A stretch of DNA of 64,000 nt from Lentisphaerota bacterium (lineage in GTDB: Bacteria > Verrucomicrobiota > Kiritimatiellia > RFP12 > JAAYNR01): the NCBI GenBank assembly GCA_016873675.1, contig VGWG01000003.1, forward strand, positions 3,626-67,625, given 5' to 3'. This document shows positions 5,909 through 36,455 of this stretch, piece after piece. The notes below the pieces were generated by a model, which saw only the letters and a list, made by a program, of their open reading frames with translations, did no database searches and had not been told where the DNA came from. The position numbers and the translations under genes were made by a program. Position 1 is the first letter of the stretch; each line of letters begins with the position of its first letter.

Positions 5909-7351
5909 CTACGTTGTCATACGTTGGCCGGATAGGCGCGGCGCTACGCGCCCGCCGTGTGCATCATCCTGCCGGTCCCGTAGCAACCGACCTACTGGCT
6001 GCTCGGGTTCGCCGCCATAGGCGACCCACTTGGCCAAGCGCGCCACATTACGCATCCCCACCAGATGTCCCAGCATGGAAGCCGGGCGGCCAAATTTCCG
6101 GTAGAGGAGATTGAATTCCAAATATGCCCGCACCTGGGCCGTCGCGGTTGGCCAACGACGTGCGATCCCTTCCCAGGAGTAGAACCGGCGGTACATCCAC
6201 CGATGCCCCTGCTCCAGGTCTGTCGCCGACATGCGCGCCGGGCGAAAAACGGCGTGTGCCGTGTTGTAGTGTTCGTAATCGCGATCAATAATACGTCCTT
6301 CGGATGCCAATTGCGTGTGCAGCACGGTCCCCGGATATGGAGTGAGGATGTGCGCCGTCATGGAGGAGACGCGATTGCGCAACAACCAGTTCAACGTGTC
6401 GGGAAAGACATCCGGCGTGTCCTCATCAAAACCAAACACCATGCTGGCGTTGACCAACATGCCGCGCGCATGAATCCGGGCAATGGTGGCGTCATACTCC
6501 TCCGGCCGGTTTTGACCCTTTCCGCACCCCTGCAGGGCGGCGCGGCGCACGGTTTCAAAACCAATGAACAGACTCTTGCAGCCACTGGCCGCCATTTCGT
6601 CGAGCAAGTCCTCGTGTCGGCCAATGTCCGCCGAGACCGCTGTGTGCCACGTCAGATTCAGCGGCCGCAGCGCAGCTACTAATTCTCGTGTCTGTGCTGG
6701 ATTTCCCAGAAAGTTGTCGTCAATGAACATCACATGTCGCGTGCCCAGACTCTCGATCTCGCGCAGCACATGGCTGACGGGTTTCATGCGATACCGTGCG
6801 TCAATATTGGGAGAGCTGTTATAGCAGAAAGAACAACGCCACGGACAACCGCGCCCGGCTGTCAGCGTATTGGTAAACAGGTAACGTTGGGCATCGAGCA
6901 GTTCCCATCGTGGCACAGGGGAATCGGCCGGATCGACCAGTCGTGTGTTGCGATAGCATCGCTGCAGACACCCGGCCTCGACATGTTGCAGCAGTTCCGG
7001 CCATAAATACTCGGCTTCGCCAATCACCACGGCATCACAGTGCAGCAGGCAATCCTCCGGACAGGCTGTTGGATGAATGCCACCCATCACAACCGGGATG
7101 CCACGCCGCCGGTAGTCGGCCGCGATACGTGAAGCTCGAAGAAACGTATCGGCCTTGACCGTGATGCCAACCAAATCCGGCGTATCACTCCAATCCAGCG
7201 GCTGCACGTTCTCGTCCACCACTGTTACCCGATGCCGGTGGGGGGTCAGCGCGCCCAGCACCAGCAGGGCCAGCGGCGGTGCCATATGCGTCTTCCAGTC
7301 CGAATCCATCGGACGCCGCGTCACGGCCGGCGAGATCAGTTTGATCCACAT
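5909..7351 (-). CDS. B12-binding-domain radical SAM protein (class B radical SAM).
   Basis: 480 aa. The N-terminus has a cobalamin-binding-like region (GIPVVMGGIHPT). It is followed by CPWRCSFC (a CxxxCxxC radical SAM cluster motif) and a C-terminal region. Confidence 0.8.
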   Translation of the reverse strand: MWIKLISPAVTRRPMDSDWKTHMAPPLALLVLGALTPHRHRVTVVDENVQPLDWSDTPDLVGITVKADTFLRASRIAADYRRRGIPVVMGGIHPTACPEDCLLHCDAVVIGEAEYLWPELLQHVEAGCLQRCYRNTRLVDPADSPVPRWELLDAQRYLFTNTLTAGRGCPWRCSFCYNSSPNIDARYRMKPVSHVLREIESLGTRHVMFIDDNFLGNPAQTRELVAALRPLNLTWHTAVSADIGRHEDLLDEMAASGCKSLFIGFETVRRAALQGCGKGQNRPEEYDATIARIHARGMLVNASMVFGFDEDTPDVFPDTLNWLLRNRVSSMTAHILTPYPGTVLHTQLASEGRIIDRDYEHYNTAHAVFRPARMSATDLEQGHRWMYRRFYSWEGIARRWPTATAQVRAYLEFNLLYRKFGRPASMLGHLVGMRNVARLAKWVAYGGEPEQPVGRLLRDRQDDAHGGRVAPRLSGQRMTT

Positions 7352-7367
7352 GGTTGTGTTTTCCTCA

Positions 7368-8117
7368 CTATCGTGGCGCGCCCAGGGCTCCGAGCCACGG
7401 ACACATCACCTGAAACCAGAGATGCTCGAAGAAGTTGCTGGAAAAGGCGGCCGGATTCCAGAACGTGATCGCCAGATCCGGGCGTTGCACAAATGGACTC
7501 AGCAGCCAGGCGCACTGCGTGCCGACCAATCCCGTGGTCAGCACCCACGCCACCAGCACCCGCCACGCCACGCCGCAGTTCGGGGTCAGCGCGCGCAGCA
7601 GGCGGAACAAGCGCGCGTAGCCGACCACCCCGGCACACCCGACACTGATCACCAGCGCTGACAACAACACGCGATACGCCGCCAGGCCTCCGGACGCCTC
7701 CGGTCGCGGCGCCTGCGTGACCAGATAGGCCACCACCGGCGACAGCGACGCCAGCAGAACGGCGGTGATGGACATCGCCCCCAAGACACACCGACGCAAC
7801 TGCCGCACCGAGAGACCGCCGCCCAACAGCCAATTCAGCATGGTATTTGCCGCCACGCTCAGCCAGACCACGGCGTGCAGCATCAGCGGCATCTTGATGG
7901 CTCCGTACAGCGCCTGCCAGGGCGATCGCCAGCAGCCAAATGCCGCGCCAAACGCCGCCATGCCGAGAACAATCAGCAGGCTCCAGCCGAGGGAGAACAG
8001 CTCCGTGCTACGGTCTTCGCGCAACGCATCGACCAACGATTTCTCCATGCGGCACAGCCGCACGGGATCCATGGCCCTGCGTAGACCTCCGCTGGCACCG
8101 TTGCTTGGTCCGCACAT
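7368..8117 (-). CDS. Polytopic membrane protein, one of a tandem paralog pair. Possibly Yip1-like.
   Basis: The start was chosen at MCGPSN (8117), which has an aaggag RBS 8 nt upstream. The longest ORF runs to 8195 but would overlap the upstream gene by 56 nt. It is clearly similar to the next gene (LGMAAFGAAFG versus LGMAAYGVVVG, and others). Confidence 0.5.
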   Translation of the reverse strand: MCGPSNGASGGLRRAMDPVRLCRMEKSLVDALREDRSTELFSLGWSLLIVLGMAAFGAAFGCWRSPWQALYGAIKMPLMLHAVVWLSVAANTMLNWLLGGGLSVRQLRRCVLGAMSITAVLLASLSPVVAYLVTQAPRPEASGGLAAYRVLLSALVISVGCAGVVGYARLFRLLRALTPNCGVAWRVLVAWVLTTGLVGTQCAWLLSPFVQRPDLAITFWNPAAFSSNFFEHLWFQVMCPWLGALGAPR

Positions 8118-8139
8118 CTGCGCTGCTCCTTTGCGTCTC

Positions 8140-8880
8140 CTAATTAAACCAGGCATGCAGGAAGAAATCCCGCGGCGCAAAATCCCATCCCTCAAAGGGT
8201 CCCATCAGCGGCCGCAAGGTGGTCGTCATCTGGAGACACACGACGACAAAGATGATGCACCAGACCGGGAGCGCCTGCATGAACGTGCCGTTTAAATCGA
8301 CCAGCCAACCGCCCAGTCGCCGTAGCGCAAACACGCACGAGATCAGCCAAAGCAGAACATGCATTCCGCCCATAAAGCCGGCGGAATGCGTGGACTGCGT
8401 GAAGATCCACGCGACCGGCGCAAAGCCCGCCATCAAAACCACCAGCAGAGCCAGCGAAGCAGCCAGCAACCCGGTCAGATCGCGCGCCGACTGCCGGCCG
8501 CCGGACAGGCAGAGCAGAATGTAAAGACTGGGCCAGCAGATTACAGCGGACGCCAGCAAACCGCCTGCCAGTTTCACCGGCACAATCGCGATCTGCATGT
8601 CACCCGGAAACAGCCCCACGACTACGCCGTAGGCCGCCATGCCCAGAAGCCCCATGACGGTGAGTTGCCGCGTCAGGTATCCGCTGTCGGCGCCGGTCAA
8701 ACCCGCCGCCAGGCGGTCGGGTTGCTTGAGCAACGCATCCAGAATCGCGCCCCAACCGCGTATCGGACGACGGTCAACAACACGGACCGGAAACCCTAGA
8801 AGCGGCGGCGGAAGTTGCTGATCGAGAACATCTTCTGCGCCGATGCTGTTGTCTTTGACAGGATCTTGTTCTGTACTCAT
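8140..8880 (-). CDS. Polytopic membrane protein, paralog of 7368-8117.
   Basis: Start at MSTEQD (8880), giving an ATGA overlap with the upstream gene. It has multiple hydrophobic helices and similarity to the preceding ORF. Confidence 0.5.
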   Translation of the reverse strand: MSTEQDPVKDNSIGAEDVLDQQLPPPLLGFPVRVVDRRPIRGWGAILDALLKQPDRLAAGLTGADSGYLTRQLTVMGLLGMAAYGVVVGLFPGDMQIAIVPVKLAGGLLASAVICWPSLYILLCLSGGRQSARDLTGLLAASLALLVVLMAGFAPVAWIFTQSTHSAGFMGGMHVLLWLISCVFALRRLGGWLVDLNGTFMQALPVWCIIFVVVCLQMTTTLRPLMGPFEGWDFAPRDFFLHAWFN

Positions 8881-10040
8881 GATGGATCTCCTTTGCATTG
8901 CGGCCGCCACAGGCCAAAGACCATGGCCACGGCTGCACACTCCCAACCAAACGGGCCATACCCGGCAAATCCCAGCAACGGCATCTCGAAGACGTAGAAG
9001 CGACCGACATACGGCACGTCATAGACCCAGCGCGCCAAGCTGTACATGTTCCACATCTCCCAAAAACCTCCGCAGATCACCGCCGCCAGAGAAAGACGCA
9101 CGAGCGTGCGCCAGTCGCCGCGTCCCAGATCATCAAACAGCGTCTCCTGACCCGCCGCCGCCAACAACCCGCACAGCACGGCCAGCGGGGCCAGCCAGAG
9201 CAGTGGAAAGAGCACATTCGGAAACACGGGCAGGAGAAAGAGTCCGGCAGCCCCTGCCAGCGCAAATCCTGCGCCAGCCAGCCGCGGACGCGCAAACCGA
9301 ATGCGGCCCCAATCCTCCAGTCCGGCGGTCAGACGCGGCATCGTGGCCAGCCAGTCGTGCGTGCCCAGCACCGCCGGCAGCACCGTGGTGAAGGAAAGCG
9401 TGGCCATGAGCGCATACTCGAACGGCGAGAAACGTTCCACGTTCTGATAGAACCAGTTCTGCACGCTGCGATTGAGAAACTCGAATCCCCACCAGAAAAC
9501 CGCACTGCAGGCCGCCAATCCCGCGAGCGCGGCAGGCCGGCGCGTGAGCCAGCACGCACCCGCGCGGCGTTGCGTCAGCCCCAGAATCGTCACAATGTAC
9601 CCCATCCAAAGGAACACGTAGGTGTGGCGCTGGATCGGCGCGAGCGCCGGAATGCGAGTCCACGCAACCCCCCACGCCATCAGCATCCAGCCGAGTCCCG
9701 CCCAGCCCCATGCGGGCATTCCAAACCGGTCCGCAAAGCGGCCGTGGCGCGTTCCGATCGCGCATGACAGGGGGTCGGCGCGCATCACACGCCACACTAC
9801 CGGCAGAACCACCGCCACAATCGCCAGCGCCAGACCCACCCAAACCCACCCCACAAACGGCGCATGCTGCACGATCACCCGCTGCGGCGGGAATTCGAGC
9901 CAGACCGATGCCGGCAGTCCGACCCAGCGACCACCGGCTACCGGCAGCGCCACGATCAGCGCCAGCGCCAGCACGGCCACCGACAGGCGGCGCGCACGCC
10001 CGTCCATATTGGCAGAGTACTTTGCATGACAGAGTTTCAT
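8877..10040 (-). CDS. Integral membrane protein (387 aa), hypothetical.
   Basis: About 9-10 hydrophobic segments; W/G/F-rich (YVFEMPLLGFAGYGPFGWE). It is translationally coupled to the downstream membrane-protein pair. Confidence 0.5.
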   Translation of the reverse strand: MKLCHAKYSANMDGRARRLSVAVLALALIVALPVAGGRWVGLPASVWLEFPPQRVIVQHAPFVGWVWVGLALAIVAVVLPVVWRVMRADPLSCAIGTRHGRFADRFGMPAWGWAGLGWMLMAWGVAWTRIPALAPIQRHTYVFLWMGYIVTILGLTQRRAGACWLTRRPAALAGLAACSAVFWWGFEFLNRSVQNWFYQNVERFSPFEYALMATLSFTTVLPAVLGTHDWLATMPRLTAGLEDWGRIRFARPRLAGAGFALAGAAGLFLLPVFPNVLFPLLWLAPLAVLCGLLAAAGQETLFDDLGRGDWRTLVRLSLAAVICGGFWEMWNMYSLARWVYDVPYVGRFYVFEMPLLGFAGYGPFGWECAAVAMVFGLWRPQCKGDPS

Positions 10041-11073: not shown

Positions 11074-11134
11074 GCCAATTCCCCTTTCGACGAAACCAGA
11101 TTAGCAAACGGCAAAGCGCTTTGCAACACAAAGT

Positions 11135-11356
11135 TTAACCGGCATAGATCAACGCAGGGGCCCCGGCGGCTTTCTCCCGCTCGCAGAAGATGCGAATCGG
11201 CTTGATGAAATCGGAATTGAATGTCATGGACGATTTGATTTCAACGGGCATCCATGAGCGCCCGTGCTGAACGATAAGATCGATTTCAAAACCCTTGTCG
11301 TCACGCAATGGGGTCTCTTCCTTTATGCGGGAACGGACAACCCATCCCCGGCGCAA
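11135..11356 (-). pseudogene. Remnant C-terminal fragment of a DUF4143/AAA ATP-binding protein.
   Basis: 73 aa (…GFEIDLIVQHGRSWMPVEIKSSMTFNSDF…) matches only the extreme C-terminus of DUF4143 ATPases. There is no upstream N-terminal part. The region is lower-GC. Confidence 0.45.
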
Positions 11357-11455
11357 ATATCAAGTAGAATCTTAAAAATGCGCTTCACCCCGCTTATCAT
11401 CAAGATAGACAGTCGGTAGGCCCGTCCCTATCGTTCCGCCCGATCAGACTTCGTG

Positions 11456-12622
11456 TTAATTCCTTTGTCTGCCCGCCGCGAGGATTGCATGATCTTCTGC
11501 CAGCGAGATAAGAGGAAATAGTTCGTTGTACTGCTTCTGGATGAACATCGGGGACTTCCGTCGAAATAGCCGCTCTGCCTGTCGATCTGCGATTCGCAGC
11601 GTAATCTGTTCATGTGCACAAAGGACCGGTGACACCTGGCCCAGAAGTCCGGTTGCCTGTCGATTGAGGCACCCGCAGAAATGATTGCAGCGTTCCCGTA
11701 TGGCGCATGGGAGGCATGCTTCTTTCTCCGTCGTATTTTCCAAATACAGTCTTTGGCGGCGCACTTCATCCACACCGGTTCGTACGTCTCCGATGCACCA
11801 CTCCGAATCCCCGCCGTCGCCCACAAACTGAACACAAGGGAAGATGCGCCCTGACGGCGCGATGGAAATCTGCCTACGCCCAAGTTCGCACCGTTCGTGC
11901 CGACAACTTCCCGGAAAGATGTGTCCGGCAATCTTCACATCAAATGGACTGAAATAGAACTTCTCTTCTCTGAGGGTCTGCGTCTCATACCAATCAGCCA
12001 ATTCGCCGTATTGCCGTTCAAGTTCTTTGAGTGCGCGCCGCGACCATGGTGTGCCATAGTTCAGGGAGCAAATCAGGTACCTGAATCCGCAAGCGAAGAA
12101 AAATCGGACAGATTCAGCGTACCACGACACCGTCTCGGGGGTCGTCACTAACATGACCGGCGCGTACGGTTTATGTGCGAGCAGAAGGTCGATGACCGGG
12201 CGCAGTCTTTCAAAGGTTCCGTTGCCCGACGCATCGATTCGATGAACATCGTGTGCGGCCTGCACCCCATCATGACTAAGCGCCACGAATACACCTGCGG
12301 TCAGGGGATCGGTCAGAAACGTCTTGTCGAGCAGAGCGCCATTTGTCGTTAGTTTGAAATGGAACAACTGGCCGGTCCTTGCTTCGATATCCCGACAGTA
12401 ACATATCGTCTCTCTAACAAGATCAGGACGCAACAACGGCTCGCCACCGAAGAATATAATCCCCAAGCTTTGCCCCTGCGACTGTTGCGCGCTGAGCCGC
12501 AGTGCGAGGTCAACTGCTGCTCGGGCCGTATCGGCCGTCATGGTGCCGCCCAGATGCGGTGCCGCGTAACAATACCGACAACGGAAGTTGCATTCCGACG
12601 TCAGATGGAGTGTGACGTGCAA
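11456..12622 (-). CDS. Radical SAM/SPASM-domain maturase (anaerobic sulfatase-maturating-enzyme-like).
   Basis: CNFRCRYCY (CxxxCxxC) at the N-terminus and C-terminal Cys clusters (CLPCAIRERCNHFCGC) typical of SPASM/twitch. 388 aa. GC is lower than the surroundings. Confidence 0.75.
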   Translation of the reverse strand: MHVTLHLTSECNFRCRYCYAAPHLGGTMTADTARAAVDLALRLSAQQSQGQSLGIIFFGGEPLLRPDLVRETICYCRDIEARTGQLFHFKLTTNGALLDKTFLTDPLTAGVFVALSHDGVQAAHDVHRIDASGNGTFERLRPVIDLLLAHKPYAPVMLVTTPETVSWYAESVRFFFACGFRYLICSLNYGTPWSRRALKELERQYGELADWYETQTLREEKFYFSPFDVKIAGHIFPGSCRHERCELGRRQISIAPSGRIFPCVQFVGDGGDSEWCIGDVRTGVDEVRRQRLYLENTTEKEACLPCAIRERCNHFCGCLNRQATGLLGQVSPVLCAHEQITLRIADRQAERLFRRKSPMFIQKQYNELFPLISLAEDHAILAAGRQRN

Positions 12623-12623
12623 A

Positions 12624-13460
12624 TCAGATGACTCCCTGTCCTTTCAGCCATTTCACAAAATCCTGCACTTGTTCGCGCAGCTCCTTTTCGCCAATGTCCT
12701 TAGCGGCTTTCTGTCTTGCTTCCCAGAAAGAGCGCCGTTCAGTATCGGTTGCCTCTTTCTTTGGATAATCCATATTAGGAGCAGAGGCGGCCGGGTCATA
12801 GAACACGGCCACAATGGTCTTTCCTTTTGTGTGAGTTAATCCATTGGTTAGGACTTGCGCTGTGGTTTTGAAATCGAAACTCGACACCGAGCACATGCGC
12901 GTGTGATCCTTCCTTTCCCAGTCGGCGAAATCCTTCCGGGTTACGACCTGGTAAGCGACGTCGTGCTGTTTGTCGTACCCGTCCAACACAAGGTCACGCT
13001 TTTGCGCGTTCGGCTTCTGTTTTCTCTCTTTCGTATTTTCGTCCCTCTCATCCAAGAACCCGAATTGATCGGTTACCGGAACCATCATATCCTTCAGCGT
13101 GAGCGCGTCTGCGGAAAAATCAATCCCCGCCTTTCTGGCCTCATCCTGGACCACTTGCCGTGCTTCGTCTTCAGAGAGGAATACGGGGGGATTCACGGCG
13201 ACACATCCGAAGCCACCCCGGCCTTCTCCGTGGATGAAAAGTGGCGCGACGCGAGGTGCGTCGACTGCCGCGTTCTTAGAGTCGCCAGCAACGGCCGGTT
13301 TCGATATAATCAGAGGGATGACCATGCTCAACACTCCCAGTACGAGGCGGTGCTGCCGCCAGCGTTCTGGAATCCATTGCAGTAGTTCCGGATGCTCCAT
13401 CAGGTATTGACGTGTCGGATAACATGGAGTTGTATATCGTCGGACTATTCGCATTTTCAT
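12624..13460 (-). CDS. Hypothetical single-TM protein (low-GC island).
   Basis: Start taken at MKMRIV (aaggaaa RBS). The longest ORF runs to 13538. There is one hydrophobic helix (LVLGVLSMVIPLII) and no recognisable domain. GC is about 52% versus about 66% in the flanks. Confidence 0.45.
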   Translation of the reverse strand: MKMRIVRRYTTPCYPTRQYLMEHPELLQWIPERWRQHRLVLGVLSMVIPLIISKPAVAGDSKNAAVDAPRVAPLFIHGEGRGGFGCVAVNPPVFLSEDEARQVVQDEARKAGIDFSADALTLKDMMVPVTDQFGFLDERDENTKERKQKPNAQKRDLVLDGYDKQHDVAYQVVTRKDFADWERKDHTRMCSVSSFDFKTTAQVLTNGLTHTKGKTIVAVFYDPAASAPNMDYPKKEATDTERRSFWEARQKAAKDIGEKELREQVQDFVKWLKGQGVI

Positions 13461-13762
13461 TGTTTTCCTTTCATAGGGCAACTCCTTAAGACGGTTGAGG
13501 GTCTTGCCTCCCGCGCAAAGCTGCGCCGACACAGGCACACATCATTTTCCAACATACGCCCTTTATTGTCTGCGCAGCGACATGCCGCACCCAAAACGAA
13601 TACTGCAAGTATGGCACGTTCCAGCGAACTTGTATAGCCCTCAAAAAATCCGATTCGGCGGTGCACTTGGTTTTACGCATTACACTGGAATCCTAGAAGG
13701 TTTTACGCTATCATCATCTGCGTCTTCGCGTTGCGCCTGTACTGAATGTGCGCCCATTTGCC

Positions 13763-16203: not shown

Positions 16204-16437
16204 ATGACCACCATCAACGAGACCCGAAGTCGCCGCGAATTCATCCGATTCTGCGGCCGTTTGGCTGTGCTGGGCGGCGCCGCGTACTACGCCTCGCGGC
16301 TGTTCCTCCGCGGCCAAGTTTCTTTGCCCGGACAATCCTGCGAGAACCAGGGGATCTGCTCATCCTGTCGCGCCTACTCCCGCTGCGGCCTGCCGCAGGC
16401 GTTGTCCCGGCGCCGGGCACAGGGGGGCCGCTCATGA
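16204..16437 (+). CDS. Small (77 aa) twin-arginine-signal Cys-rich protein.
   Basis: SRREFIRF followed by a hydrophobic stretch (Tat-like), then CENQGICSSCRAYSRCGLP. There is a strong RBS (aagggggga), and the ATGA overlap couples it to the next gene. Confidence 0.5.
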   Translation: MTTINETRSRREFIRFCGRLAVLGGAAYYASRLFLRGQVSLPGQSCENQGICSSCRAYSRCGLPQALSRRRAQGGRS

Positions 16438-26872: not shown

Positions 26873-29800
26873 TCACTGCGGCGCGGTGCGCGCGGCGCGC
26901 GCGCCAAAACGGCCGGTGCGGTCACAGTCAATACGATTAAACTTACCGAGCACCTCGTACATCTGCTCCGGCTGGACCCAGATCCCGATAATGGACGGTC
27001 CCTGCCACTGCCCCATGGAGACGCTGTCGCCCATGGCCGACCAGGGCCAGTCGTCCGGCACCGTGGCGATCCCCTTTCCATGGGTTCCCGCAAACGCCTT
27101 GGCGGGACCGCCATAACTCCGAATCAAAGCGGGCCATTCCTGCACACAGCCACTCAGGCTCAGATCCGGAATGCCCCAGTAGGAGGCGCCATAGTTCCCG
27201 AACGTCTTCGCCAGGCTGGGATCGGTCCCGAGCCCGACCGCAGGGCCGCATACCGCGCCCGTCCAGGCATCCGCTTCTCGCGCCACCGCCCGTGGCCCGC
27301 GACACGCCTTTTCATATTCCAGGCACGTCGGCGGACGCAACCCCGCCCAGGCCGTATAGGAAATGATATCAGGCCAGGACAGAAAGTTGCAGGGACGTTC
27401 CGGTTGCTTCGCGACAAACACCCCGTCCTCCGTGCGCGTAATGGTGTAGCCGTTGATGTCGGTGAGGTCGAGTCCGTAGCGCCAGACGTTCCCATTGCAC
27501 AGCGCGGTGTACCGTCCATGGTTATAGGCATAGGGCTTCTCACCGGGATTCGCGGTATTGAGCAGCGCCACGTACTGTCCCTGGCTGATCGGGTTCTTCA
27601 TGACGTAAAAGGCGCGGTAGCCATTCGGCCACGTCGCCCTCTCCGGCGCGCTGTTGGTCGCGCCCAAATACCCGCCCTCCCGTGTGGCGTCCGCCGTGTT
27701 GATCAGCGTCAACGGCCCACCAAAAACGCTTTTTGACTGGAACGGCCCTTCTGGCACGTAAACCATCTCGACGGCATAAACCTCGGGCTTGATCGTGGCG
27801 GGATCGGTGACGCCATCGGCAGTGTGTAACCAACGAACGGCAATGTTCTTGAACGCATTCGCCCCCCGTCCGACGGTTTTCCGAGAGATGAAAACCCCCA
27901 TGCCGCGCGCGCCATCGTCACTCGCGCCGACTTGCAGGGCGGCATCCGCCGGAACCGCGTGGTGCGTGGCATCCGTGTCGAGCGTGGCGTGCGAGAACGC
28001 GCTCGCCCCAGGGGGCAGGAACTTGACGAAAACCCAGGCGGCGTCCCAGCTTTCGATTTTGAGCGGCTTCCCCGTCACGTTTTTGTCGGCCGGCTCCTCC
28101 CATGCCGCGCGCCAGGAGTTGTCCCATGCGAGGTCGAACGTGATCGTGCGGAAGGGCTCCGCACCGGCCGTCACTTTGATATTCGTAACCTTGACGGAAT
28201 CCGCATGCGTAACCGCGACAGGCGCCGCTGTCGCAACGGGGCCTGGCTTCGGCGAGCCCCCGCCGCCGGAACGACGCCGCGGGCCGGACGGACCCACCAG
28301 GCGAATGGCGTTGCGCGCGTGTCGAGTGCCGCCCATGTGTTCGCCCCCAATCCAGGTCCGTTCCGAGATCAGAGCCCCCCTCATTCCCGTATGCGTTGGC
28401 TCACCCCACTCTTTCGGAGCCGTTTCAAAGGCGGGGGCGTTTTTGATTCGTTTCGGCGGGGCACCGGGCTTGCCGGCCGGCGTTCGGCCGTCACCCGGCG
28501 TACCGCGAAACGCACGCCCCGCGAGACTGCCGATCCGAAAGGCTTGTATTTCCGCGAAGTCCGGGAGTCCCCAATAAGTCGCACCGGCAGATTGCCGGTC
28601 ACTGTCGGCGGTCAGCATATTCCCCACGCGGGTTGCTTGGCCTTCGTCCAGAATCAGCCCGCCATCATACCGTTCGGTAGGCATGCCGAGATCGAGCACT
28701 TTGTTGCCCTTCTTCCATTTTTTGGTGAGGGCCTTGTTGTCGCTCACCTCACCCCAGGTCAATTCCCGGACCACGGCGCGGGCCGGGCCGCGACACGCCT
28801 TTTCGAACTCCAGCTCCGTCATCGGCCGCAACCCCGCCCAAACCGCGTACGAGAAGTAGTCTGCCGTGGAGAGATAACTGCAGCGGCGGAACGGCAGACG
28901 GGCGGTGTACACCGGCGGCTTGACATACTTCGAACGGGGATCCGCCATCGCATCGGCTAGAAACGCATGATCACCGTCCATCGTCTCGGACGCGTCCGGC
29001 TTCCCGGCCATGGTCTCCAACTTCGGAGCGGTGGCCGGCGCTTCCGCCGAAGAATGGATCGTGAATCCATCCAGTTCCCGCACAACAAAAGACGAGTGAC
29101 CGGCGATCCCTGGCATCGTGATCTCTTCCATGTCGCCCATACCGCCCTCGGGGTCCCAGCTGTCGCCGCTGATGAAGGCGCGGGTGGCGGCGACATCGGG
29201 CGGAAGCGAATTCAGAAAATCGGCGTACTGACCCTGTGTCGTCGGGTATTTCATACAATAGAAACCCTCGTAGCCGGTTGGATATTCGTCGTTCAGCGTG
29301 CCGGGCGTTCCGATGGACGTGCCGCCGGCCATTCGTTCCGCGTAAGTAAGTGTGCCCCAGAGTTGGCCGGCGACCGGGCCCAATCGCCGCGCGCGGGTTC
29401 CGTCGGCCACAGGTTTGTTCCACTCGGCATCGACCAAGAACGGAATCGTCGGGCCTCCGCGCCATGCGCCATCGGTCAGATTTCCGAGCGGATATCCATC
29501 AGCCGATTTAGCAACGGGCACTGTTGGTCCGTCCGTAAATGGAGGAAAGCCCGGATCGGCGCCGCATCCGACTCGGAACGGCCCTTCGGGCACATAGATC
29601 ATCGCCACCACATGCGCCTTGATCGCGGCCTGGGTCGGGTCCACTTTGTCGGTTCCGTGCAACCACCGCAGTTTTACACCCTTGAAGTTGTTCGCGCCAT
29701 GCCCGATCGCAGCGCGGTGAATATAGACCCCGAGTCCGCGGTCCCCCCCGATCGTCACGCCGACGGTGTTGGTCGCCCCGGCGGGCATCACGTGATGTGA

Positions 29801-30202
29801 GCCATCGGTGTCAAGAGACGCATGTTGCCAGTGGTTCCGTTCGATGCTCTCCTTGGAATCCTTATTGGGCAGGAACTTCAGAAACACCCAGGCGGCATCC
29901 CAGTTCTCGACTTCGATATCCTTGCCCGTGCAACTCGTTGCGGCTGGCTCGACCCACTTTGCCCGCCAGGACCATGACCACGACAGGTCAAACGTCACAT
30001 AACTGTAGTCCTTCGTCGCGGCCTCCCATTTCACGTTCGTGACCGCCAGGTCATAGGTCGGCGCGCCCTTGAACCGAGCGGCGGCATCGTCGTCGGCCGC
30101 GAGGCACGATGCGCCCAGCCACAACACCAACCCCGTCGTCAGTCTCACTACCCCGCGTGCGATTGGACTCCTGCCCCCCGTTGGATCATTCATCTCTCTC
30201 AT
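26873..30202 (-). CDS. Secreted two-module protein. Each module has an N-terminal Trp-rich beta-rich region plus an FGE/SUMF1-like domain.
   Basis: Signal peptide. Module 1 has TFDLSWSWSWR…ENWDAAWVFLKF and AVWAGLRPMTELEFEKACRGP. Module 2 has TFDLAWDNSWR…ESWDAAWVFVKF and TAWAGLRPPTCLEYEKACRGP. Confidence 0.7.
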   Translation of the reverse strand: MREMNDPTGGRSPIARGVVRLTTGLVLWLGASCLAADDDAAARFKGAPTYDLAVTNVKWEAATKDYSYVTFDLSWSWSWRAKWVEPAATSCTGKDIEVENWDAAWVFLKFLPNKDSKESIERNHWQHASLDTDGSHHVMPAGATNTVGVTIGGDRGLGVYIHRAAIGHGANNFKGVKLRWLHGTDKVDPTQAAIKAHVVAMIYVPEGPFRVGCGADPGFPPFTDGPTVPVAKSADGYPLGNLTDGAWRGGPTIPFLVDAEWNKPVADGTRARRLGPVAGQLWGTLTYAERMAGGTSIGTPGTLNDEYPTGYEGFYCMKYPTTQGQYADFLNSLPPDVAATRAFISGDSWDPEGGMGDMEEITMPGIAGHSSFVVRELDGFTIHSSAEAPATAPKLETMAGKPDASETMDGDHAFLADAMADPRSKYVKPPVYTARLPFRRCSYLSTADYFSYAVWAGLRPMTELEFEKACRGPARAVVRELTWGEVSDNKALTKKWKKGNKVLDLGMPTERYDGGLILDEGQATRVGNMLTADSDRQSAGATYWGLPDFAEIQAFRIGSLAGRAFRGTPGDGRTPAGKPGAPPKRIKNAPAFETAPKEWGEPTHTGMRGALISERTWIGGEHMGGTRHARNAIRLVGPSGPRRRSGGGGSPKPGPVATAAPVAVTHADSVKVTNIKVTAGAEPFRTITFDLAWDNSWRAAWEEPADKNVTGKPLKIESWDAAWVFVKFLPPGASAFSHATLDTDATHHAVPADAALQVGASDDGARGMGVFISRKTVGRGANAFKNIAVRWLHTADGVTDPATIKPEVYAVEMVYVPEGPFQSKSVFGGPLTLINTADATREGGYLGATNSAPERATWPNGYRAFYVMKNPISQGQYVALLNTANPGEKPYAYNHGRYTALCNGNVWRYGLDLTDINGYTITRTEDGVFVAKQPERPCNFLSWPDIISYTAWAGLRPPTCLEYEKACRGPRAVAREADAWTGAVCGPAVGLGTDPSLAKTFGNYGASYWGIPDLSLSGCVQEWPALIRSYGGPAKAFAGTHGKGIATVPDDWPWSAMGDSVSMGQWQGPSIIGIWVQPEQMYEVLGKFNRIDCDRTGRFGARAARTAPQ

Positions 30203-31889: not shown

Positions 31890-34800
31890 TTACTCCGGCT
31901 TGGTCACATCCAACACCAAATCATCCATAAGTTTGCCATCCTTGGCATCGCGAAACAGAACAAAGACGTTCGCCAGATTTTCGGGCTTGTCCCCATTCGC
32001 GCGACATTGAACCAGCATCGTGTTTCCGCCCTTGCGCAGGCGGAAGGTCTTCCCCTGAACGAAGTCGGAGGACTTTCGGCGTTCCTGCGCTTCGAGATGC
32101 GTATCGTACACGACATCGCCGTTGACCCAGACACGTCCGACAAAGGGCTTCGATCCAGGCGGCATGCCAAAGTCTTTACTCGCCAGCACCTTGTTGTCCA
32201 GCCAGGTCCATCCGACGGTTTCGCTCCCCACTTGAATGACCGCATCACGGTCAGCGGGCGCTGTGATGCGCGTCGCGGCGAGGACAATCGTATTCGCATC
32301 CGGCAACGGGTTGAGCTTCCCAAGCCACAGGCTGGCGCCATTTATGACCTGCTCCCAACGCTCGGGCAGTTTGCCGGACTGGAACACGTCGGCCGGTGCC
32401 GCCGCCCAGGCCGGATCATCGGATGCGGATTTTTTCTCGGGCTTCTTCATTCCGGAATTGCCCAACAATGCGTCCAGATCGTCTCCACCCCCCGGCGTCT
32501 GTGATTCATCGTTCACATCCATCGACGGACCTTTCTTCGGAAGTTGGCGTCGCCCGACCCACCACCGCGATTGAGCCCGAAGCTCTGCGGCCGTGTCGCC
32601 AGCCTGGGGAGCGCCACTGCCGACAGTAACCTGATAGCGGATCGAATAGACACCCGGGGAGACCGCCTGGCCTGGTACGGTCAAGGTTGTGCTGGCCAAG
32701 CCGCCAGGCGGGATATCGATGCGCCGATTCGTCTCGGACATCACCATACCTTGCGGCGGTTGGATCTCGATGGTCGCGGGGTGAGCGCGGTCGGTGGCAT
32801 TGGTGATCAACAGCGGCACCGCGCCACCGGTGATCACACCGACAACAGGCGGCGCCGGTGTCAACAGGGGATCTGGCAATGGCAGCCGAACCCTCTGCTC
32901 GGCCAGCACGTTGCCATCGGGCGTCTGGATCCGGCAAGACACCATCTGAACCTTGCGGATCGATCGCGCGGTCTGGCGCGTCAGCACGGTCAGTATCCGG
33001 AACGACGTACTGCTATCAGGCGCGGCTGTGAAAGCGCGCGATGCGGGTCCTTCCGGGAAACACGCGTCGGGCAGCGGCGACGCCAGTTCGACCTTCAGCG
33101 CCTTGCTTTCGGCATTGCGGAACTGTCCGGCGAGATAGAAAACGATGATGTCGGCGTTGCGCAGATCGGGCAGTGGATCCAGCTCAAGCTGGCTGTTGCT
33201 GAGCGGTTCTTTCTCTTTCTTTGCTGCCGTGGGCGCCAAGGCCGGCGCCGTACGCGCACCACGCCAGCCTTCGAAGTCATTGCTCGGAAGTGAGACGGCT
33301 TGATCGAGTATCGCGCGGCTCGTCGAGGTTTTGGAGCGGTAGGATGTGCGCGCCTGAGAGGCTTGATTGCCGAAGCAGGCGCCGCGCAGCATGATTCCAT
33401 TCCCTTCCGGCGGAGGCCAGTCGGCCGGCGCCTTCGTCACACCTCGCCCGTGCGTACCCGCGAAGCGGCGTCCGATGGCATCGCCCACCGAAACCGTCTG
33501 CTGGAATGGTCCACCGAGGTTCAGCAGCCGAATGCCCCAATATCCCGGACCGACCTCATCCGGGTTGGGTTGGCCTGGGCCGCGACAGGCTTTCTCATAT
33601 TCCAGTTCCGACATCGGCCGCAATCCCGCCCAAGCCCCGAACGCCGCGCCCTGCCACCAAGTCAACCCCACCCCTTTGGAGGGAGAGTATTTAAGGCAGA
33701 CAGGCCAATCTCCCCCGTGGAAGGCATGTGCATCCGACTGAACCTCGGACTGCATTTCGAGAAATCCGGCGAACTGGCCTTGTTTGAGCGGGAATTTCAT
33801 GCAGTAGAAAGCCTCGTAGCCAGTGGGGAACGCAGCCGGAATTTCGCCCGCATCTGTCGCGTCCGGCGTGACGCCCAAGGCCCAGAGCCGACCTTCCTGC
33901 GGACCGGTCGGGATGGCTCCGCTGTCCATAACTTGATACGGCCGTGTGTTCTGGCTGCCGTCGGTATATTGGTAGAACCGATTAGGCTCTGTCCCGCCCG
34001 ATCCCAGATAGAACGATCCCTCCGCCACATAGACCATTTCGATGCCGAAGGGTTGAATAGCGGTGTTCGGTGCCTGCGCATCGCACACGACCGTGACGCC
34101 CTTCGCCGATAGTGGCCCCGTGCCCGGCGCGGTGCGGCGCAGAAACACACCGGTGAAACCGTCCGGGCCGTCGGGCACAACGAATTCCAGCTTGGTTCCC
34201 GTCTCCTGGCCGTAGCCTGCGGGATTCAAAACCTGATCGGCGGCCAGCCTGACGTGATGCCAGTTCGTCGCGCCTTCACTGCGTGCCTTGAAGAACACCC
34301 AGGCGGCGTCATGATTGGTCGCGTTCCGCCACGATTCGTCCCAGGTAATGTCGAATCGGACCGTCGTTGTTTTGGCATCGCCTCGCTCAACCGCCACATT
34401 GTCGATGCGGAGCGCTTGATGGAACAACGTCTGCACCAGGCGCTTGAATTCGTCACGGCTCTCGGCGGGGGTGCTTGGCCTGGCAGTGCGCACACATCGA
34501 AAGCCCATGAATGATTTGTCTTTCAGTGATCCACGATCCGATACGCGCAAACAGGTTGGTGGGGACCACCAGCCGAAAACACCACATCCGCGAAGCAGAA
34601 AACTCGTCTCCCGAAGACGCCAGGCTGAATGCGTGATCGGGATGCCGTCACCATGCGTGCCCGGGAATTGACGCCCCAGTGGATTGCCGATCGTAACCGT
34701 TGGCTCAAACAGGTTTCCCGTTAACTCCATGATTCCCCAGTAGGAGGCACCCGCTCGGACCCGATCACTGTCCGGCGTGGCAAAAATTCCGCACCGTAGC

Positions 34801-36455
34801 GGCCGATTGATCTCGTTGATGGCATGGGAAACTTCTTTTCCGTTGTGCACGCTGCGCATGGTCGTCCCTGCCCAGGCGGCATTGCCGCGTTCCGCGTCGG
34901 GGCCGTTGGCGCCTTCCCAGACAACCCTTTCATTGGGCGTATAAGGGTCAACCACGGCATATCCGTCTTGAGGTGGCAGGGGCGCATTCGACCCGGCAAG
35001 CTTGTCCGTACCCCAGGCATATTCGCCGGGCACGGGCTTGAGCGGTCCGCGGCAGGCCTTCTCATATTCCAGTTCCGTCATAGGACGCAGCCCCGCCCAG
35101 GCGGCATACCGTGCGCCATCCAGATAACTGAATCCGTCGCAGGCCAGGTAGGGCGCGTCCGTGTCGTAAAGCGCCGGGGTTCCGGCAACGGCGACCTTGA
35201 TCCCGTGATGGCCAGAGCCCATGGCCCCCATCACGGCCGCTTGCTGTTTGCTGCTCAGTGTGTTGAGAAAGGCCGTGAATTCGCCCTGCGAGATTTCATA
35301 TCTCATGCAGTAGAAAGCGGCAAATCCCTTGGGAAACCCGGACGGGAGTTGCCGTCCCAGAATGCTGCTAAAGTCGTCAGCCCCGCGAATGCCGTCGCGG
35401 TTGCCAAGATACTTTGGATTCGCTCCGCCCAGCGTGAGCGCGGCTTCGCTTTCGATTCGGAACGGTTCGGTTCCGTTGCCGGCCGATAACTGGGCGGCAA
35501 CAATGGGTAACTGTTTTTTGGGGTACCCGCTAGCCGACAAATTCTCTTTCGCGGGAGGCTCCTTCTTCTTGGCCGACGGGTCGGCTTTCGGTGCAGGTTC
35601 CGACGCGCTCATTTCGTCGTCCTCGGGCGCATCTAACTCCGCCACGAGTTGGCTCTCATCGTTGGTTGCGACCACACCGTCGCCCACCCAGAAGGCCCCC
35701 TCCGGAACATAGACCATCGGAATGGCGAAAAGCGCGATCTCAATCCCATCGCTGGCGCTCTGTTTCGTCGCCGTCCCAGCTAGCGCGACATTCAACGCCT
35801 TCTCGAGATCGGGATCTCCCGCCGTGACACCCCCGCCGAAACTGGGGCCGCGCCCCCCCTTGACCTCCTGCGGGCGGGCCTTGCCCGCCGCAGCCACGGT
35901 CACCTTGTCGAGGCTGGTGACTCCATCCGCGCCGTGCAACCAGCGCAGGGTGACGCCTTTCCAGTTGTTCGGCCCGCTGCCGGGCGCATCACGATAAACA
36001 AAGACCCCGAGGCCACGCTGGCCGTCGTCGGTCGTGCCAACATCCAACCTGGCACCCGCAGGAACACCATGATGGGCGGCGTTCGTCGAGAGCGTCGCGT
36101 GCGACCACCCGTCAGCGCCAGGCTTGTGAAACTTGACGAACACCCAGGCTGCGTCCCAGTTTTCAAATTTTGCCGGACCTTTGCCGCCAAGCCTCGCATC
36201 CGGTTCGTCCCACACCGCTCGCCACGAGTGGTCCCAGGCGATGTCGAAAGCGATCATGCCGGAGCCTTTTTCGCCCGTCGGCTTGCTGATCACACTGCTG
36301 ATCCGGATGGGGTCAGCCTTGCCTGTGCCTTGAAACCGAGCGTCGGCAAAGCCTGCTTGGCCGACAGCGGGAGCCGTGGCCAACGCAAGTGCTCCGAATG
36401 CCAAGAGCAAGCCGCTGGACCGCTCCAGTTGCCGCGTGGACGATAGTTTCTTCAT
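31890..36455 (-). CDS. Secreted 1521-aa protein with two FGE/SUMF1-like modules plus an unassigned C-terminal domain of about 520 aa.
   Basis: Signal peptide MKKLSSTRQLERSSGLLLAFGALALA. It carries IAFDIAWDHSWR…ENWDAAWVFVKF with AAWAGLRPMTELEYEKACRGP, and VRFDITWDESWR…NHDAAWVFFKA with FGAWAGLRPMSELEYEKACRGP. Confidence 0.7.
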   Translation of the reverse strand: MKKLSSTRQLERSSGLLLAFGALALATAPAVGQAGFADARFQGTGKADPIRISSVISKPTGEKGSGMIAFDIAWDHSWRAVWDEPDARLGGKGPAKFENWDAAWVFVKFHKPGADGWSHATLSTNAAHHGVPAGARLDVGTTDDGQRGLGVFVYRDAPGSGPNNWKGVTLRWLHGADGVTSLDKVTVAAAGKARPQEVKGGRGPSFGGGVTAGDPDLEKALNVALAGTATKQSASDGIEIALFAIPMVYVPEGAFWVGDGVVATNDESQLVAELDAPEDDEMSASEPAPKADPSAKKKEPPAKENLSASGYPKKQLPIVAAQLSAGNGTEPFRIESEAALTLGGANPKYLGNRDGIRGADDFSSILGRQLPSGFPKGFAAFYCMRYEISQGEFTAFLNTLSSKQQAAVMGAMGSGHHGIKVAVAGTPALYDTDAPYLACDGFSYLDGARYAAWAGLRPMTELEYEKACRGPLKPVPGEYAWGTDKLAGSNAPLPPQDGYAVVDPYTPNERVVWEGANGPDAERGNAAWAGTTMRSVHNGKEVSHAINEINRPLRCGIFATPDSDRVRAGASYWGIMELTGNLFEPTVTIGNPLGRQFPGTHGDGIPITHSAWRLRETSFLLRGCGVFGWWSPPTCLRVSDRGSLKDKSFMGFRCVRTARPSTPAESRDEFKRLVQTLFHQALRIDNVAVERGDAKTTTVRFDITWDESWRNATNHDAAWVFFKARSEGATNWHHVRLAADQVLNPAGYGQETGTKLEFVVPDGPDGFTGVFLRRTAPGTGPLSAKGVTVVCDAQAPNTAIQPFGIEMVYVAEGSFYLGSGGTEPNRFYQYTDGSQNTRPYQVMDSGAIPTGPQEGRLWALGVTPDATDAGEIPAAFPTGYEAFYCMKFPLKQGQFAGFLEMQSEVQSDAHAFHGGDWPVCLKYSPSKGVGLTWWQGAAFGAWAGLRPMSELEYEKACRGPGQPNPDEVGPGYWGIRLLNLGGPFQQTVSVGDAIGRRFAGTHGRGVTKAPADWPPPEGNGIMLRGACFGNQASQARTSYRSKTSTSRAILDQAVSLPSNDFEGWRGARTAPALAPTAAKKEKEPLSNSQLELDPLPDLRNADIIVFYLAGQFRNAESKALKVELASPLPDACFPEGPASRAFTAAPDSSTSFRILTVLTRQTARSIRKVQMVSCRIQTPDGNVLAEQRVRLPLPDPLLTPAPPVVGVITGGAVPLLITNATDRAHPATIEIQPPQGMVMSETNRRIDIPPGGLASTTLTVPGQAVSPGVYSIRYQVTVGSGAPQAGDTAAELRAQSRWWVGRRQLPKKGPSMDVNDESQTPGGGDDLDALLGNSGMKKPEKKSASDDPAWAAAPADVFQSGKLPERWEQVINGASLWLGKLNPLPDANTIVLAATRITAPADRDAVIQVGSETVGWTWLDNKVLASKDFGMPPGSKPFVGRVWVNGDVVYDTHLEAQERRKSSDFVQGKTFRLRKGGNTMLVQCRANGDKPENLANVFVLFRDAKDGKLMDDLVLDVTKPE

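Follow-up and report, generated by a model that had tools for sequence, protein, structure and literature searches.

What does a radical S-adenosylmethionine (SAM) enzyme act upon when it shares an island of foreign DNA with a single companion gene? The question is raised by a locus of a Lentisphaerota bacterium (GenBank assembly GCA_016873675.1, contig VGWG01000003.1, positions 3,626 to 67,625), whose 64,000 nucleotides we refer to as the window. On the minus strand, a gene for a 278-residue, putatively exported protein, here called the partner (12624-13460), is directly followed by a gene for a 388-residue radical SAM/SPASM enzyme (11456-12622), and the two form the cassette of an island of low guanine-plus-cytosine content (GC) at 11143-13684. 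In the GenBank annotation (locus tags FJ222_00755-00775), the enzyme is a "radical SAM protein" and the partner a "hypothetical protein". A first-pass annotation, made from the letters of the DNA alone, had left three candidates for the substrate, i.e. a sulfatase encoded elsewhere, the upstream protein, and a cysteine-rich peptide with a twin-arginine translocation (Tat) signal; our analysis favors the upstream protein, the constant neighbor of the enzyme, over the other two. That the island is foreign can be claimed on solid ground, while what we propose on the biochemistry is a hypothesis, if a well-posed one: the two genes would form a self-contained module in which the partner is matured at one cysteine, Cys86, before its export. 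Towards this proposal as a whole we incline by a narrow measure; that the partner is a substrate of the enzyme, at whichever residue, we consider fairly probable.

The proposal starts from the association of the two genes, which form a self-contained two-gene module that is strictly linked across phyla. In 80 of the 88 fetched loci one or several partner genes precede the radical SAM gene on the same strand, usually at a distance of a few nucleotides; in the 79 distinct loci, one to six tandem partner copies – rarely more, degenerate ones included – stand directly before one radical SAM gene. This multiplicity of partner copies per single enzyme may be likened to that of precursor arrays. The hosts are distributed over more than ten bacterial phyla and comprise Lentisphaerales, Verrucomicrobia, Planctomycetota, Acidobacteriota, Armatimonadota, many Clostridia, WOR-3, Nitrospirales and others; cultured hosts are the Clostridia Hungatella hathewayi DSM 13479, Pseudobacteroides cellulosolvens and Candidatus Formimonas warabiya. 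Since 161 stretches coding for a relative occur among 185,579 species genomes, the module is widespread yet uncommon. An all-against-all clustering of the neighboring open reading frames (ORFs) of at least 90 residues yielded two conserved families only, and the other recurrent clusters proved to be antisense shadows of the partner and radical SAM genes. A third conserved gene beside the pair, e.g. for a protease or a transporter, did not emerge from this clustering of the fetched loci, nor was a small conserved ORF found among them. Full-text searches of the literature, which included sequence motifs and did not extend to subscription-only papers, returned no description of this gene pair.

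In the window, the TTG start of the enzyme gene lies 1 nt beyond the TGA stop of the partner gene, and the enzyme gene is translationally coupled to that of the partner. The TTG start is supported by the homologues, which begin at the same residue. Both genes are intact and under purifying selection, with a ratio of nonsynonymous to synonymous substitution rates (dN/dS) in the range of 0.10-0.13: compared with the nearest cassette relative, it amounts to 0.105 for the enzyme and to 0.13 for the partner.

The partner gene starts with an ATG, 6 nt ahead of which lies the ribosome-binding site AGGA. The N-terminus of the family aligns from this ATG, and the 26 residues added in a 304-residue form with a GTG start have no homologue; the first-pass annotation, which had described a co-directional upstream protein of 278 to 304 residues with a 1-nt gap, was right about the gap and about the shorter form. 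The start chosen in GenBank (233 residues, MBM4162973.1) is too short when compared with the family alignment. The protein is composed of an N-terminal extension (residues 1-37), a hydrophobic segment (38-53), the sequence A-V-A|G, a variable tether and an alpha/beta domain of about 200 residues, which opens with an HGxGxGxxGC loop and closes in a long helix, ...WLKGQGVI, that is conserved to the last residue. The 37-residue extension (13350-13460, minus strand) follows the pattern YxxPxYPTRxxLxxHPELLxxxPxRW, with P12, L27, P31, R33 and W34 as invariant residues; further downstream, the family alignment contains the blocks (R)VAPxFxHGxGxGxxGCxxxxPPxFLSE[DE]EA, then LDGxD...IAFEFVS, VFYDP and LRxQVxDFxxWLKxQGVI. 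A hidden Markov model (HMM) of the extension produced 161 matches in all fetched loci, every one of them in a partner-family ORF; in a database search, the profile of the extension was too insensitive and returned one match, a 72-residue fragment.

In the window copy, the 15-residue stretch with the best hydropathy (39-53) leads into A-V-A|G, a putative site of the signal-peptidase-I type, and 61 of the 98 homologous copies that were scored have a lipobox behind the hydrophobic segment. For these reasons, we take the segment for the h-region of a signal peptide with more probability than for a stable transmembrane anchor; the 37-residue n-region that precedes it is atypical for a signal peptide. 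The one transmembrane helix of the earlier reading is thus preserved as a single hydrophobic segment, but probably not as an anchor. Some variants carry long S/T/P-rich tethers between lipobox and domain, a lipoprotein-like layout.

The partner was labeled an orphan at first, yet its family numbers about 1,900 clusters. A word-indexed search found 250 homologues at E-values up to 1e-3, and a profile search of 1.84 billion representatives found 1,897 clusters at 50% identity, 1,458 of them with E-values up to 1e-10. None of 40 members matched any Pfam or NCBIfam model for the family, and its profile had no match among the sequences of the PDB. In some members, a Cu_amine_oxidN1 domain is inserted ahead of the C-terminal helix; a weak W2 match was spurious. 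The AF2 model of the partner, with a predicted local distance difference test score (pLDDT) of 81.8, consists of the alpha/beta domain and a 37-residue terminal helix, and no significant fold match to it was found in the PDB or BFVD. The weak fold matches are repeatedly restriction-endonuclease-like (AbaSI, PvuRts1I, Vsr/DUF559, TnsA-N and Holliday-junction resolvases), and the LDGxD...E-F-V-S blocks loosely resemble the PD-(D/E)xK layout; with all E-values at least 0.01, this is a lead only.

The proposed modification site is the segment from H77 to E99 (HGEGRGGFGCVAVNPPVFLSEDE; 13164-13232, minus strand), in which the TGT codon at 13203-13205 (minus strand) encodes Cys86, an invariant residue in the family alignment. 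Once duplicate contigs had been removed, the partner copy adjacent to the radical SAM gene was found to have the cysteine in 77 of 78 loci; all of the single-copy loci (51/51) are Cys-bearing, and every radical SAM locus (79/79) has at least one Cys-bearing copy. The cysteine is missing in 23 out of 147 copies, which are distal array paralogues or orphan copies. Eleven full-length paralogues among them have lost only the glycine-rich loop (profile positions 70-84), with the cysteine changed to glycine in seven cases; of the other conserved positions they keep essentially all, namely the N-terminal extension, E95, D153, E164, D170, the FYxP motif and the whole C-terminal helix. Because these paralogues lose that loop only, loop and cysteine appear to form one functional unit that is tied to the enzyme. 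Whether Cys86 itself is the modified residue we regard as evenly balanced.

Partner copies are also found away from a radical SAM gene. In the Chthoniobacteraceae chromosome CP170506.1, two loci (L019, L047) contain partner copies without an adjacent enzyme gene; a radical SAM protein of the family (P0217) is encoded on the same chromosome, and one of the orphan copies is devoid of the Cys loop, which hints that maturation may act in trans and that some paralogues have roles independent of the cysteine. In a locus from the Fimbriimonadaceae (L039, 4365-7400), six highly degenerate partner-like ORFs, which have kept the N-terminal extension and lost the loop and the C-terminal helix, stand before two intact Cys-bearing copies and the radical SAM gene.

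The enzyme belongs to the radical SAM superfamily: it matches the Pfam model Radical_SAM (PF04055) with an E-value of 2.6e-15 and 57.4 bits, against a cut-off of 29.5, and Fer4_12 is matched as well. The motif for the radical SAM cluster, C11-x3-C15-x2-C18, is encoded at 12569-12592 (minus strand); across an alignment with 30 homologues of 60-79% identity, C15 and C18 never vary, and C11 is conserved in at least 90%. The SPASM region (residues 240-335; 11618-11905, minus strand) contains nine cysteines, all of them invariant in the same 30 homologues: C240, C245-x12-G258-x4-C263, C303-x2-C306-x5-C312-x3-C316, C318 and C335. They follow the pattern of the SPASM subfamily (PF13186/TIGR04085; CX9-15GX4C...CX2CX5CX3C...C), to which C240 and C318 are extra, and the score of the Pfam SPASM HMM is 18.4 bits, under the cut-off of 21.5. 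A full SPASM domain implies two auxiliary iron–sulfur clusters.

What is more challenging is the assignment of the enzyme to a family within this class. The NCBIfam scores, given here with their cut-offs in bits, are 196 (340) for PapB (NF047865), 132 (518.7) for the Nif11-type maturase, 132 (425) for SCIFF (TIGR03974), 127 (453) for QhpD (TIGR03906), 64.8 (349) for anSME (TIGR03942) and 41.8 (441) for PRK13758; further and weaker matches are those to DynA (88 bits), YhhB (78 bits) and FxsB (TIGR04269; 56 bits, cut-off 370). The score thus stays under the cut-off for the PapB, anSME, SCIFF/CteB and QhpD families alike. The best-scoring families (PapB, Nif11, SCIFF and QhpD) all make thioethers from cysteine. 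Judged by these matches, the enzyme is a SPASM protein of the peptide/protein-maturase class that stands outside every curated family scored, and its sequence places it nearer to the thioether-forming maturases PapB and CteB than to anSME. Hence, of the maturase with CxxxCxxC and SPASM motifs announced in the first-pass annotation, the motifs and the class hold, but the enzyme is not an anSME, given the low score of that model.

Comparison with solved structures leads in a similar direction. The closest PDB match by sequence is CteB (E-value 7e-27), and since the alignment begins only at CteB residue 100, the window enzyme, whose radical SAM motif begins at residue 11, has no N-terminal domain of the recognition-element (RRE) type known from peptides that are synthesized ribosomally and modified post-translationally (RiPPs). 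With the AF2 model of the enzyme (pLDDT 86.4), Foldseek gives template modeling (TM) scores of 0.78 for CteB (root-mean-square deviation 2.8 Å), 0.74-0.80 for anSMEcpe and about 0.70 for ChlB. A conserved C-terminal extension continues for about 55 residues past the end of the PapB model.

Three thioether-forming systems may serve for comparison. The PapB/PapA system of the freyrasin ranthipeptide is the most similar in sequence, in that residues 3-326 of the window enzyme match positions 5-326 of the 330 of the PapB model, and both enzymes have a compact radical SAM plus SPASM layout that begins at CxxxCxxC. PapB is a leader-dependent enzyme which joins the sulfur of a cysteine and the carbon that is alpha to a carboxylate (PMC10739248, PMC12373016). 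It differs from the window enzyme by its cut-off, which the latter fails to reach, and by the absence of the extension of about 55 residues at the C-terminus; moreover, PapA is a short peptide with six C-x3-D/E motifs, and the window has no adjacent short precursor with such repeats but a 278-residue, putatively exported protein with one conserved cysteine. CteB of the SCIFF system (5WGG), a thioether-forming enzyme and the best solved-structure match both by sequence and by fold, is unlike the window enzyme in its N-terminal RRE-type domain and in its family score, and a six-Cys SCIFF-type peptide is not present here. QhpD installs thioethers from cysteine to aspartate or glutamate in a periplasmic protein subunit, whose N-terminal leader is removed on exit. 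It is the fourth-best NCBIfam match, again well under the cut-off; its substrate QhpC is small and has several cysteines, and the Qhp operon carries the leader protease QhpE, the exporter QhpF and dehydrogenase subunits, whereas no gene set of the kind qhpA/B/C/E/F accompanies the cassette.

On these models, the following course of events can be proposed. The cytoplasmic enzyme, which carries no export signals, unlike its partner, would bind the partner while the latter is still unfolded. It would then use the 5'-deoxyadenosyl radical to modify the Cys86 loop; modeled on PapB, QhpD and CteB, the likeliest product would be an intramolecular thioether between the cysteine sulfur and the carbon next to the carboxylate of an acidic residue. 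Thioether chemistry specifically is a prospect that we rate at somewhat under even. The modified partner would be exported by Sec, and signal peptidase would finally cut off the N-terminal extension along with the signal peptide, a proposal that would explain the absence of protease and transporter genes. A leader role of the extension would be consistent with its family specificity, as seen within the fetched loci. We infer, in short, the partner as substrate, Cys86 as site, the thioether chemistry and the role of the N-terminal extension.

Several points weigh against this proposal. The case for the partner as substrate is built on gene linkage, and the need for a Cys-bearing copy could reflect the partner's own function rather than the target of the enzyme. 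The chemistry is not transferable from the characterized systems because the enzyme lies under the cut-off of every NCBIfam family, and in the predicted model the fold is nearly as near to anSME as to CteB. The partner sequence at the cysteine, C-V-A-V-N-P-P, contains no C-x3-D/E motif; E97 and E99 lie 11-13 residues downstream of Cys86, and the nearest invariant acid in the alignment, E97 at a distance of 11 residues, is retained in the Cys-less paralogues. Naming the acceptor of a cross-link by its co-loss with the cysteine is impossible, as the Cys-less paralogues have co-lost the glycine-rich loop only and keep E97 and E99. That the same paralogues retain the extension perfectly also weakens its supposed role as a leader. 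Finally, neither an integrase nor a tRNA nor convincing flanking repeats account for the insertion of the island.

Radical SAM/SPASM enzymes are a main source of new post-translational chemistry. To our knowledge, almost all characterized members act on short peptides, and the protein-acting enzymes anSME and QhpD are rare. If our proposal is true, the module would be a third, compact protein-modifying case beside these two, with a testable prediction: one enzyme, one adjacent substrate and one invariant cysteine. It would be set apart from the anSME–sulfatase, QhpD–QhpC and PapB/CteB systems by an adjacent single-Cys partner of about 278 residues with an extended signal peptide, by the tandem diversification of this partner and by the absence of processing and export genes. 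The use of an extended signal peptide as leader would then be a new coupling of maturation to export. As a tentative generalization, to which we assign a clearly smaller probability than to the proposal itself, the partner family might constitute an unrecognized class of exported proteins or lipoproteins with a radical-SAM-modified cysteine in a glycine-rich loop, in which the leader for the maturase lies inside the extended signal peptide and general signal peptidases double as leader peptidase – i.e. a folded protein of about 200 residues would be treated by the logic of a RiPP, in a system that horizontal transfer has spread over more than ten phyla and whose substrates have diversified in tandem. 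For the annotation, the gain consists in a corrected partner start, a defined family that merits a model of its own, and the demonstration of a variable chromosomal slot, which is described below.

The alternative that survives best keeps the module and Cys86 and changes the product, namely an anSME-like oxidation to formylglycine, or another product without a cross-link; we deem it unlikely. Formylglycine would, with the same small probability, place a reactive aldehyde in what would be a novel kind of exported enzyme. The comparison with anSME (4K36-4K39, TIGR03942) is suggestive on the side of architecture: both are compact SPASM enzymes without an RRE, the TM scores of 0.74-0.80 to anSMEcpe hold along the full length, and the at least eight cysteines of the SPASM region permit two fully ligated auxiliary clusters. 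Comparable to what is proposed here, anSME acts in the cytoplasm on one cysteine or serine of a full-length protein that is exported afterwards, and the partner, like the sulfatases, would be a full-length exported protein in need of modification at this stage. The sequences speak otherwise. The scores for TIGR03942 and PRK13758 are far under their cut-offs, and the likeness to anSME covers only the radical SAM core (residues 8-184 of the window enzyme). At the position following C276 of anSME, presumably the place of its catalytic base Asp, the window enzyme has an invariant Val, when matched by motif position. The partner shows no C/S-x-P/A-x-R motif where its C-V-A-V-N-P-P stands, and its fold is not that of a sulfatase. 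Furthermore, an anSME gene does not usually have a single substrate gene of its own beside it.

Another view accepts the partner as substrate and seeks the site elsewhere, either as a carbon–carbon cross-link (cyclophane or Trp-Lys) in the tail ...DFxxW-L-K-xQGVI-COOH or in the N-terminal extension. Enzymes of the radical SAM/SPASM type that act on W-x-K-type or C-terminal motifs do exist, e.g. DarE, the 3-residue cyclophane enzymes and FxsB; the FxsB/FxsA system (FXSXX-COOH) even pairs such an enzyme with a protein that is conserved to its last C-terminal residue, as is the partner. W266-L-K268 and the N-terminal extension are kept in all copies, the Cys-less ones included, and the matches to DynA, YhhB and FxsB, weaker as they are, are real. 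Yet the thioether-forming families score far higher, and FxsB differs in its motif, its cyclophane chemistry and its gene set as well as in the shortfall of the score. The tail is predicted in a long, confident helix (pLDDT 92-97), and a site in the tail or the extension fails to explain the Cys-bearing copy beside the enzyme in radical SAM loci. We consider this view improbable.

Just as improbable, in our opinion, is that the partner serves as an anchor, a regulator, an immunity protein or an effector, while the enzyme acts on an unlinked peptide, protein or small molecule, possibly in conflict or defense. The cassettes of the Planctomycetes–Verrucomicrobia–Chlamydiae (PVC) group often occur in variable regions together with transposases, VapBC, nucleases and DUF4143 ATPases; those of Armatimonadota and Clostridia, however, lie in ordinary chromosomal contexts and have the composition of their hosts. 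The weak but recurrent likeness of the mature domain to PD-(D/E)xK nuclease folds would fit such a role, and the partner is much bigger than the usual RiPP precursors. On the other hand, the loci contain no conserved third gene or small ORF, a PADLOC scan yields generic viperin matches to the radical SAM core and nothing for the partner, and characterized full SPASM enzymes mostly act on peptides or proteins.

Very improbable, and rejected here, are the two other candidates of the first-pass annotation, a sulfatase encoded elsewhere and the Tat-like peptide at 16204-16437. In four related Armatimonadota loci a sulfatase gene does follow the cassette, but such linkage is seen in one lineage only and drops out in the neighbor clustering, the anSME model scores far under its cut-off and no ORF of at least 200 residues in the window bears the sulfatase signature C/S-x-P/A-x-R. 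The Tat-like ORF does encode four spaced cysteines, but its surroundings are native high-GC DNA, and it belongs, on the strand opposite to the cassette, to an operon that is kept in relatives without the cassette.

That the module is a newcomer to this genome can be stated with more confidence. The GC drops to 0.50-0.56 across approximately 11100-13700, compared with 0.64-0.71 in both flanks; the island as a whole has a GC of 0.532, against 0.644 for the remainder of the window, and is the lowest-GC 2.6-kb segment of the 64 kb (mean 0.639, standard deviation 0.029). The tetranucleotide deviation within the window likewise peaks at the island (z = 4.8), and the GC at third codon positions (GC3) is 0.59 in the radical SAM gene and 0.58 in the partner gene, as opposed to 0.68-0.82 in 18 other genes of the window. 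The drop over about 2.6 kb on which the first-pass annotation had based a horizontally acquired cassette therefore persists when GC, codon usage and tetranucleotides are computed properly. In 71 other loci, with a host GC of 0.30-0.70, the cassette has the GC of its flanks (mean difference 0.0005), and the difference of -0.11 between cassette and host in the window is the most extreme in this comparison. The most similar cassette DNA, with 79-80% identity along some 2,040 nt, matches in the two genes only (roughly window 13488-11451) and sits on contigs with a GC of 0.50-0.54, among them a 174-kb scaffold of GC 0.526, within which the composition of the cassette is native. A recent horizontal acquisition from a source lineage of about 52% GC is well supported.

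The borders of the island are given by metagenomic contigs (L106-L111) in which a B12-binding radical SAM protein falls into the same 90%-identity cluster as that of the window and the flanking DNA is 84-87% identical, so that they can be regarded as close relatives. Their homology to the window ends at 11142 and restarts at 13685, which sets the island at 11143-13684: the alignable stretches are window 17017-13685 for L106 and L107 and 11142-8900 for all four aligned contigs. Both flanks are kept in L106-L109, and the m206 flank in L110-L111. Between the same flanks, the relatives hold a different segment of 3.7 kb (L106 3951-7696; likewise L107-L109), in which an intact 440-residue AAA_14+DUF4143 ATPase and a protein of 535-549 residues with an FGE-sulfatase domain are encoded. 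Both composition and codon usage and the absence of the cassette from the syntenic site of close relatives thus speak for the acquisition that had been suspected at first.

In the island and its surroundings, signatures of mobility such as an integrase or transposase, a tRNA target or flanking direct repeats were not found. There is no recombinase gene in the island and no tRNA within 30 kb of it, and terminal repeats are missing. One 10-nt direct repeat, GCGTAAAACC (GGTTTTACGC on the plus strand), occurs at one junction only; its copies at 13669-13678, inside the island, and at 13699-13708, in the conserved flank, straddle the boundary 13684/13685 and may represent a microhomology used in the insertion. 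The lack of mobility signatures would suit native DNA whose composition is set by local constraints, an explanation to which we give next to no credence, given that relatives with 84-87% identical flanks hold other genes at the site, that cassette GC follows host GC from 0.34 to 0.70 in the other loci, that GC3 is shifted too and that the nearest cassette DNA comes from genomes of about 52% GC.

In this Lentisphaerae lineage, the slot that separates the ArsR-type operon from the pyrroloquinoline quinone (PQQ)/NHL operon is variable and looks like a hotspot for gene replacement. A Logan contig (L104, SRR7008372) shares 8,684 nt with the window (11136-2453) at 100% identity and ends exactly at the edge of the island, at 11136, and a 98%-identical cassette is found alone on short contigs of 1.3-3.1 kb. 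Together, these contigs suggest that the assembly broke here owing to heterogeneity in the population or to differing coverage.

Downstream of the cassette, the island carries a further trace of gene turnover. A 73-residue ORF at 11135-11356 (minus strand), which the first-pass annotation had described as a C-terminal remnant of a DUF4143 gene, is indeed a relic: its residues 18-73 are homologous to residues 305-359 of a genuine, 381-residue AAA_14+DUF4143 ATPase (45% identity, E-value 2e-13). The ORF is truncated at both ends. With Pfam DUF4143 (PF13635) it reaches 20.3 bits, under the cut-off of 28.1, and covers the last 28 model positions only; owing to this partial match and to the restricted alignment, it is a gene fragment rather than a member of the AAA_14 plus DUF4143 (PF13173 + PF13635) ATPases. 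Weak matches to the C-terminus of PADLOC PDC-S01 were also obtained. The relic was not found beside the cassette in the nearest cassette relatives. Its derivation from the 440-residue DUF4143 gene of the close relatives was rejected, the two sharing only 43% identity over 21 residues and having opposite orientations. The slot therefore presents the oddity of two unrelated DUF4143 genes, one intact and one a relic, in opposite orientations. The intact gene of the relatives has a GC of 0.58, itself lower than that of its flanks.

The non-coding parts are AT-rich, as had been stated initially: the spacer between the stop of the radical SAM gene and the relic (11357-11455, minus strand) has a GC of 0.485, and the stretch upstream of the partner gene (13461-13747) one of 0.498. 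The island-borne leader before the partner gene occupies 13461-13684 (minus strand; GC 0.50). No riboswitch or other RNA was detected in these flanks by Rfam at E-values up to 1. For the small ORFs of the island leader, no homologue was found in the other cassette loci, and a precursor peptide hidden there was dismissed as a candidate on this ground.

Beyond the island, the flank towards lower coordinates contains a second strain-specific indel. At window 7358-8899 there are about 1.54 kb of extra DNA compared with L106-L111, in which a gene for a membrane protein of 387/391 residues directly adjoins the gene of the B12-binding radical SAM protein. The extra DNA is associated with two hypothetical membrane proteins on the minus strand (7368-8195 and 8140-8946), which are weakly related to each other (28% identity over 107 residues) and have no Pfam match. 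The B12-binding radical SAM protein itself (5909-7351, minus strand; 480 residues, PF02310 + PF04055) forms an operon with a 206-residue membrane protein and an ArsR/HTH_34 regulator; its GC of 0.60 is somewhat under that of its neighbors. Further away, two proteins of 1109 and 1521 residues (26873-30202 and 31890-36455, both minus strand) have the FGE-sulfatase domain as their sole Pfam match and bear no relation to the cassette.

On the other side of the island, the 77-residue Tat-like ORF (16204-16437, plus strand) combines an SRREFI signal with a CxxxxxCxxCxxxxxC pattern and lies between an NHL-repeat gene and a polyferredoxin-like gene. This position is kept in distant (L094, L098, L100, L103) and close (L106-L109) relatives, and the ORF probably encodes a small iron–sulfur or cysteine-rich subunit of the native PQQ/NHL/ferredoxin/NuoF-like operon.

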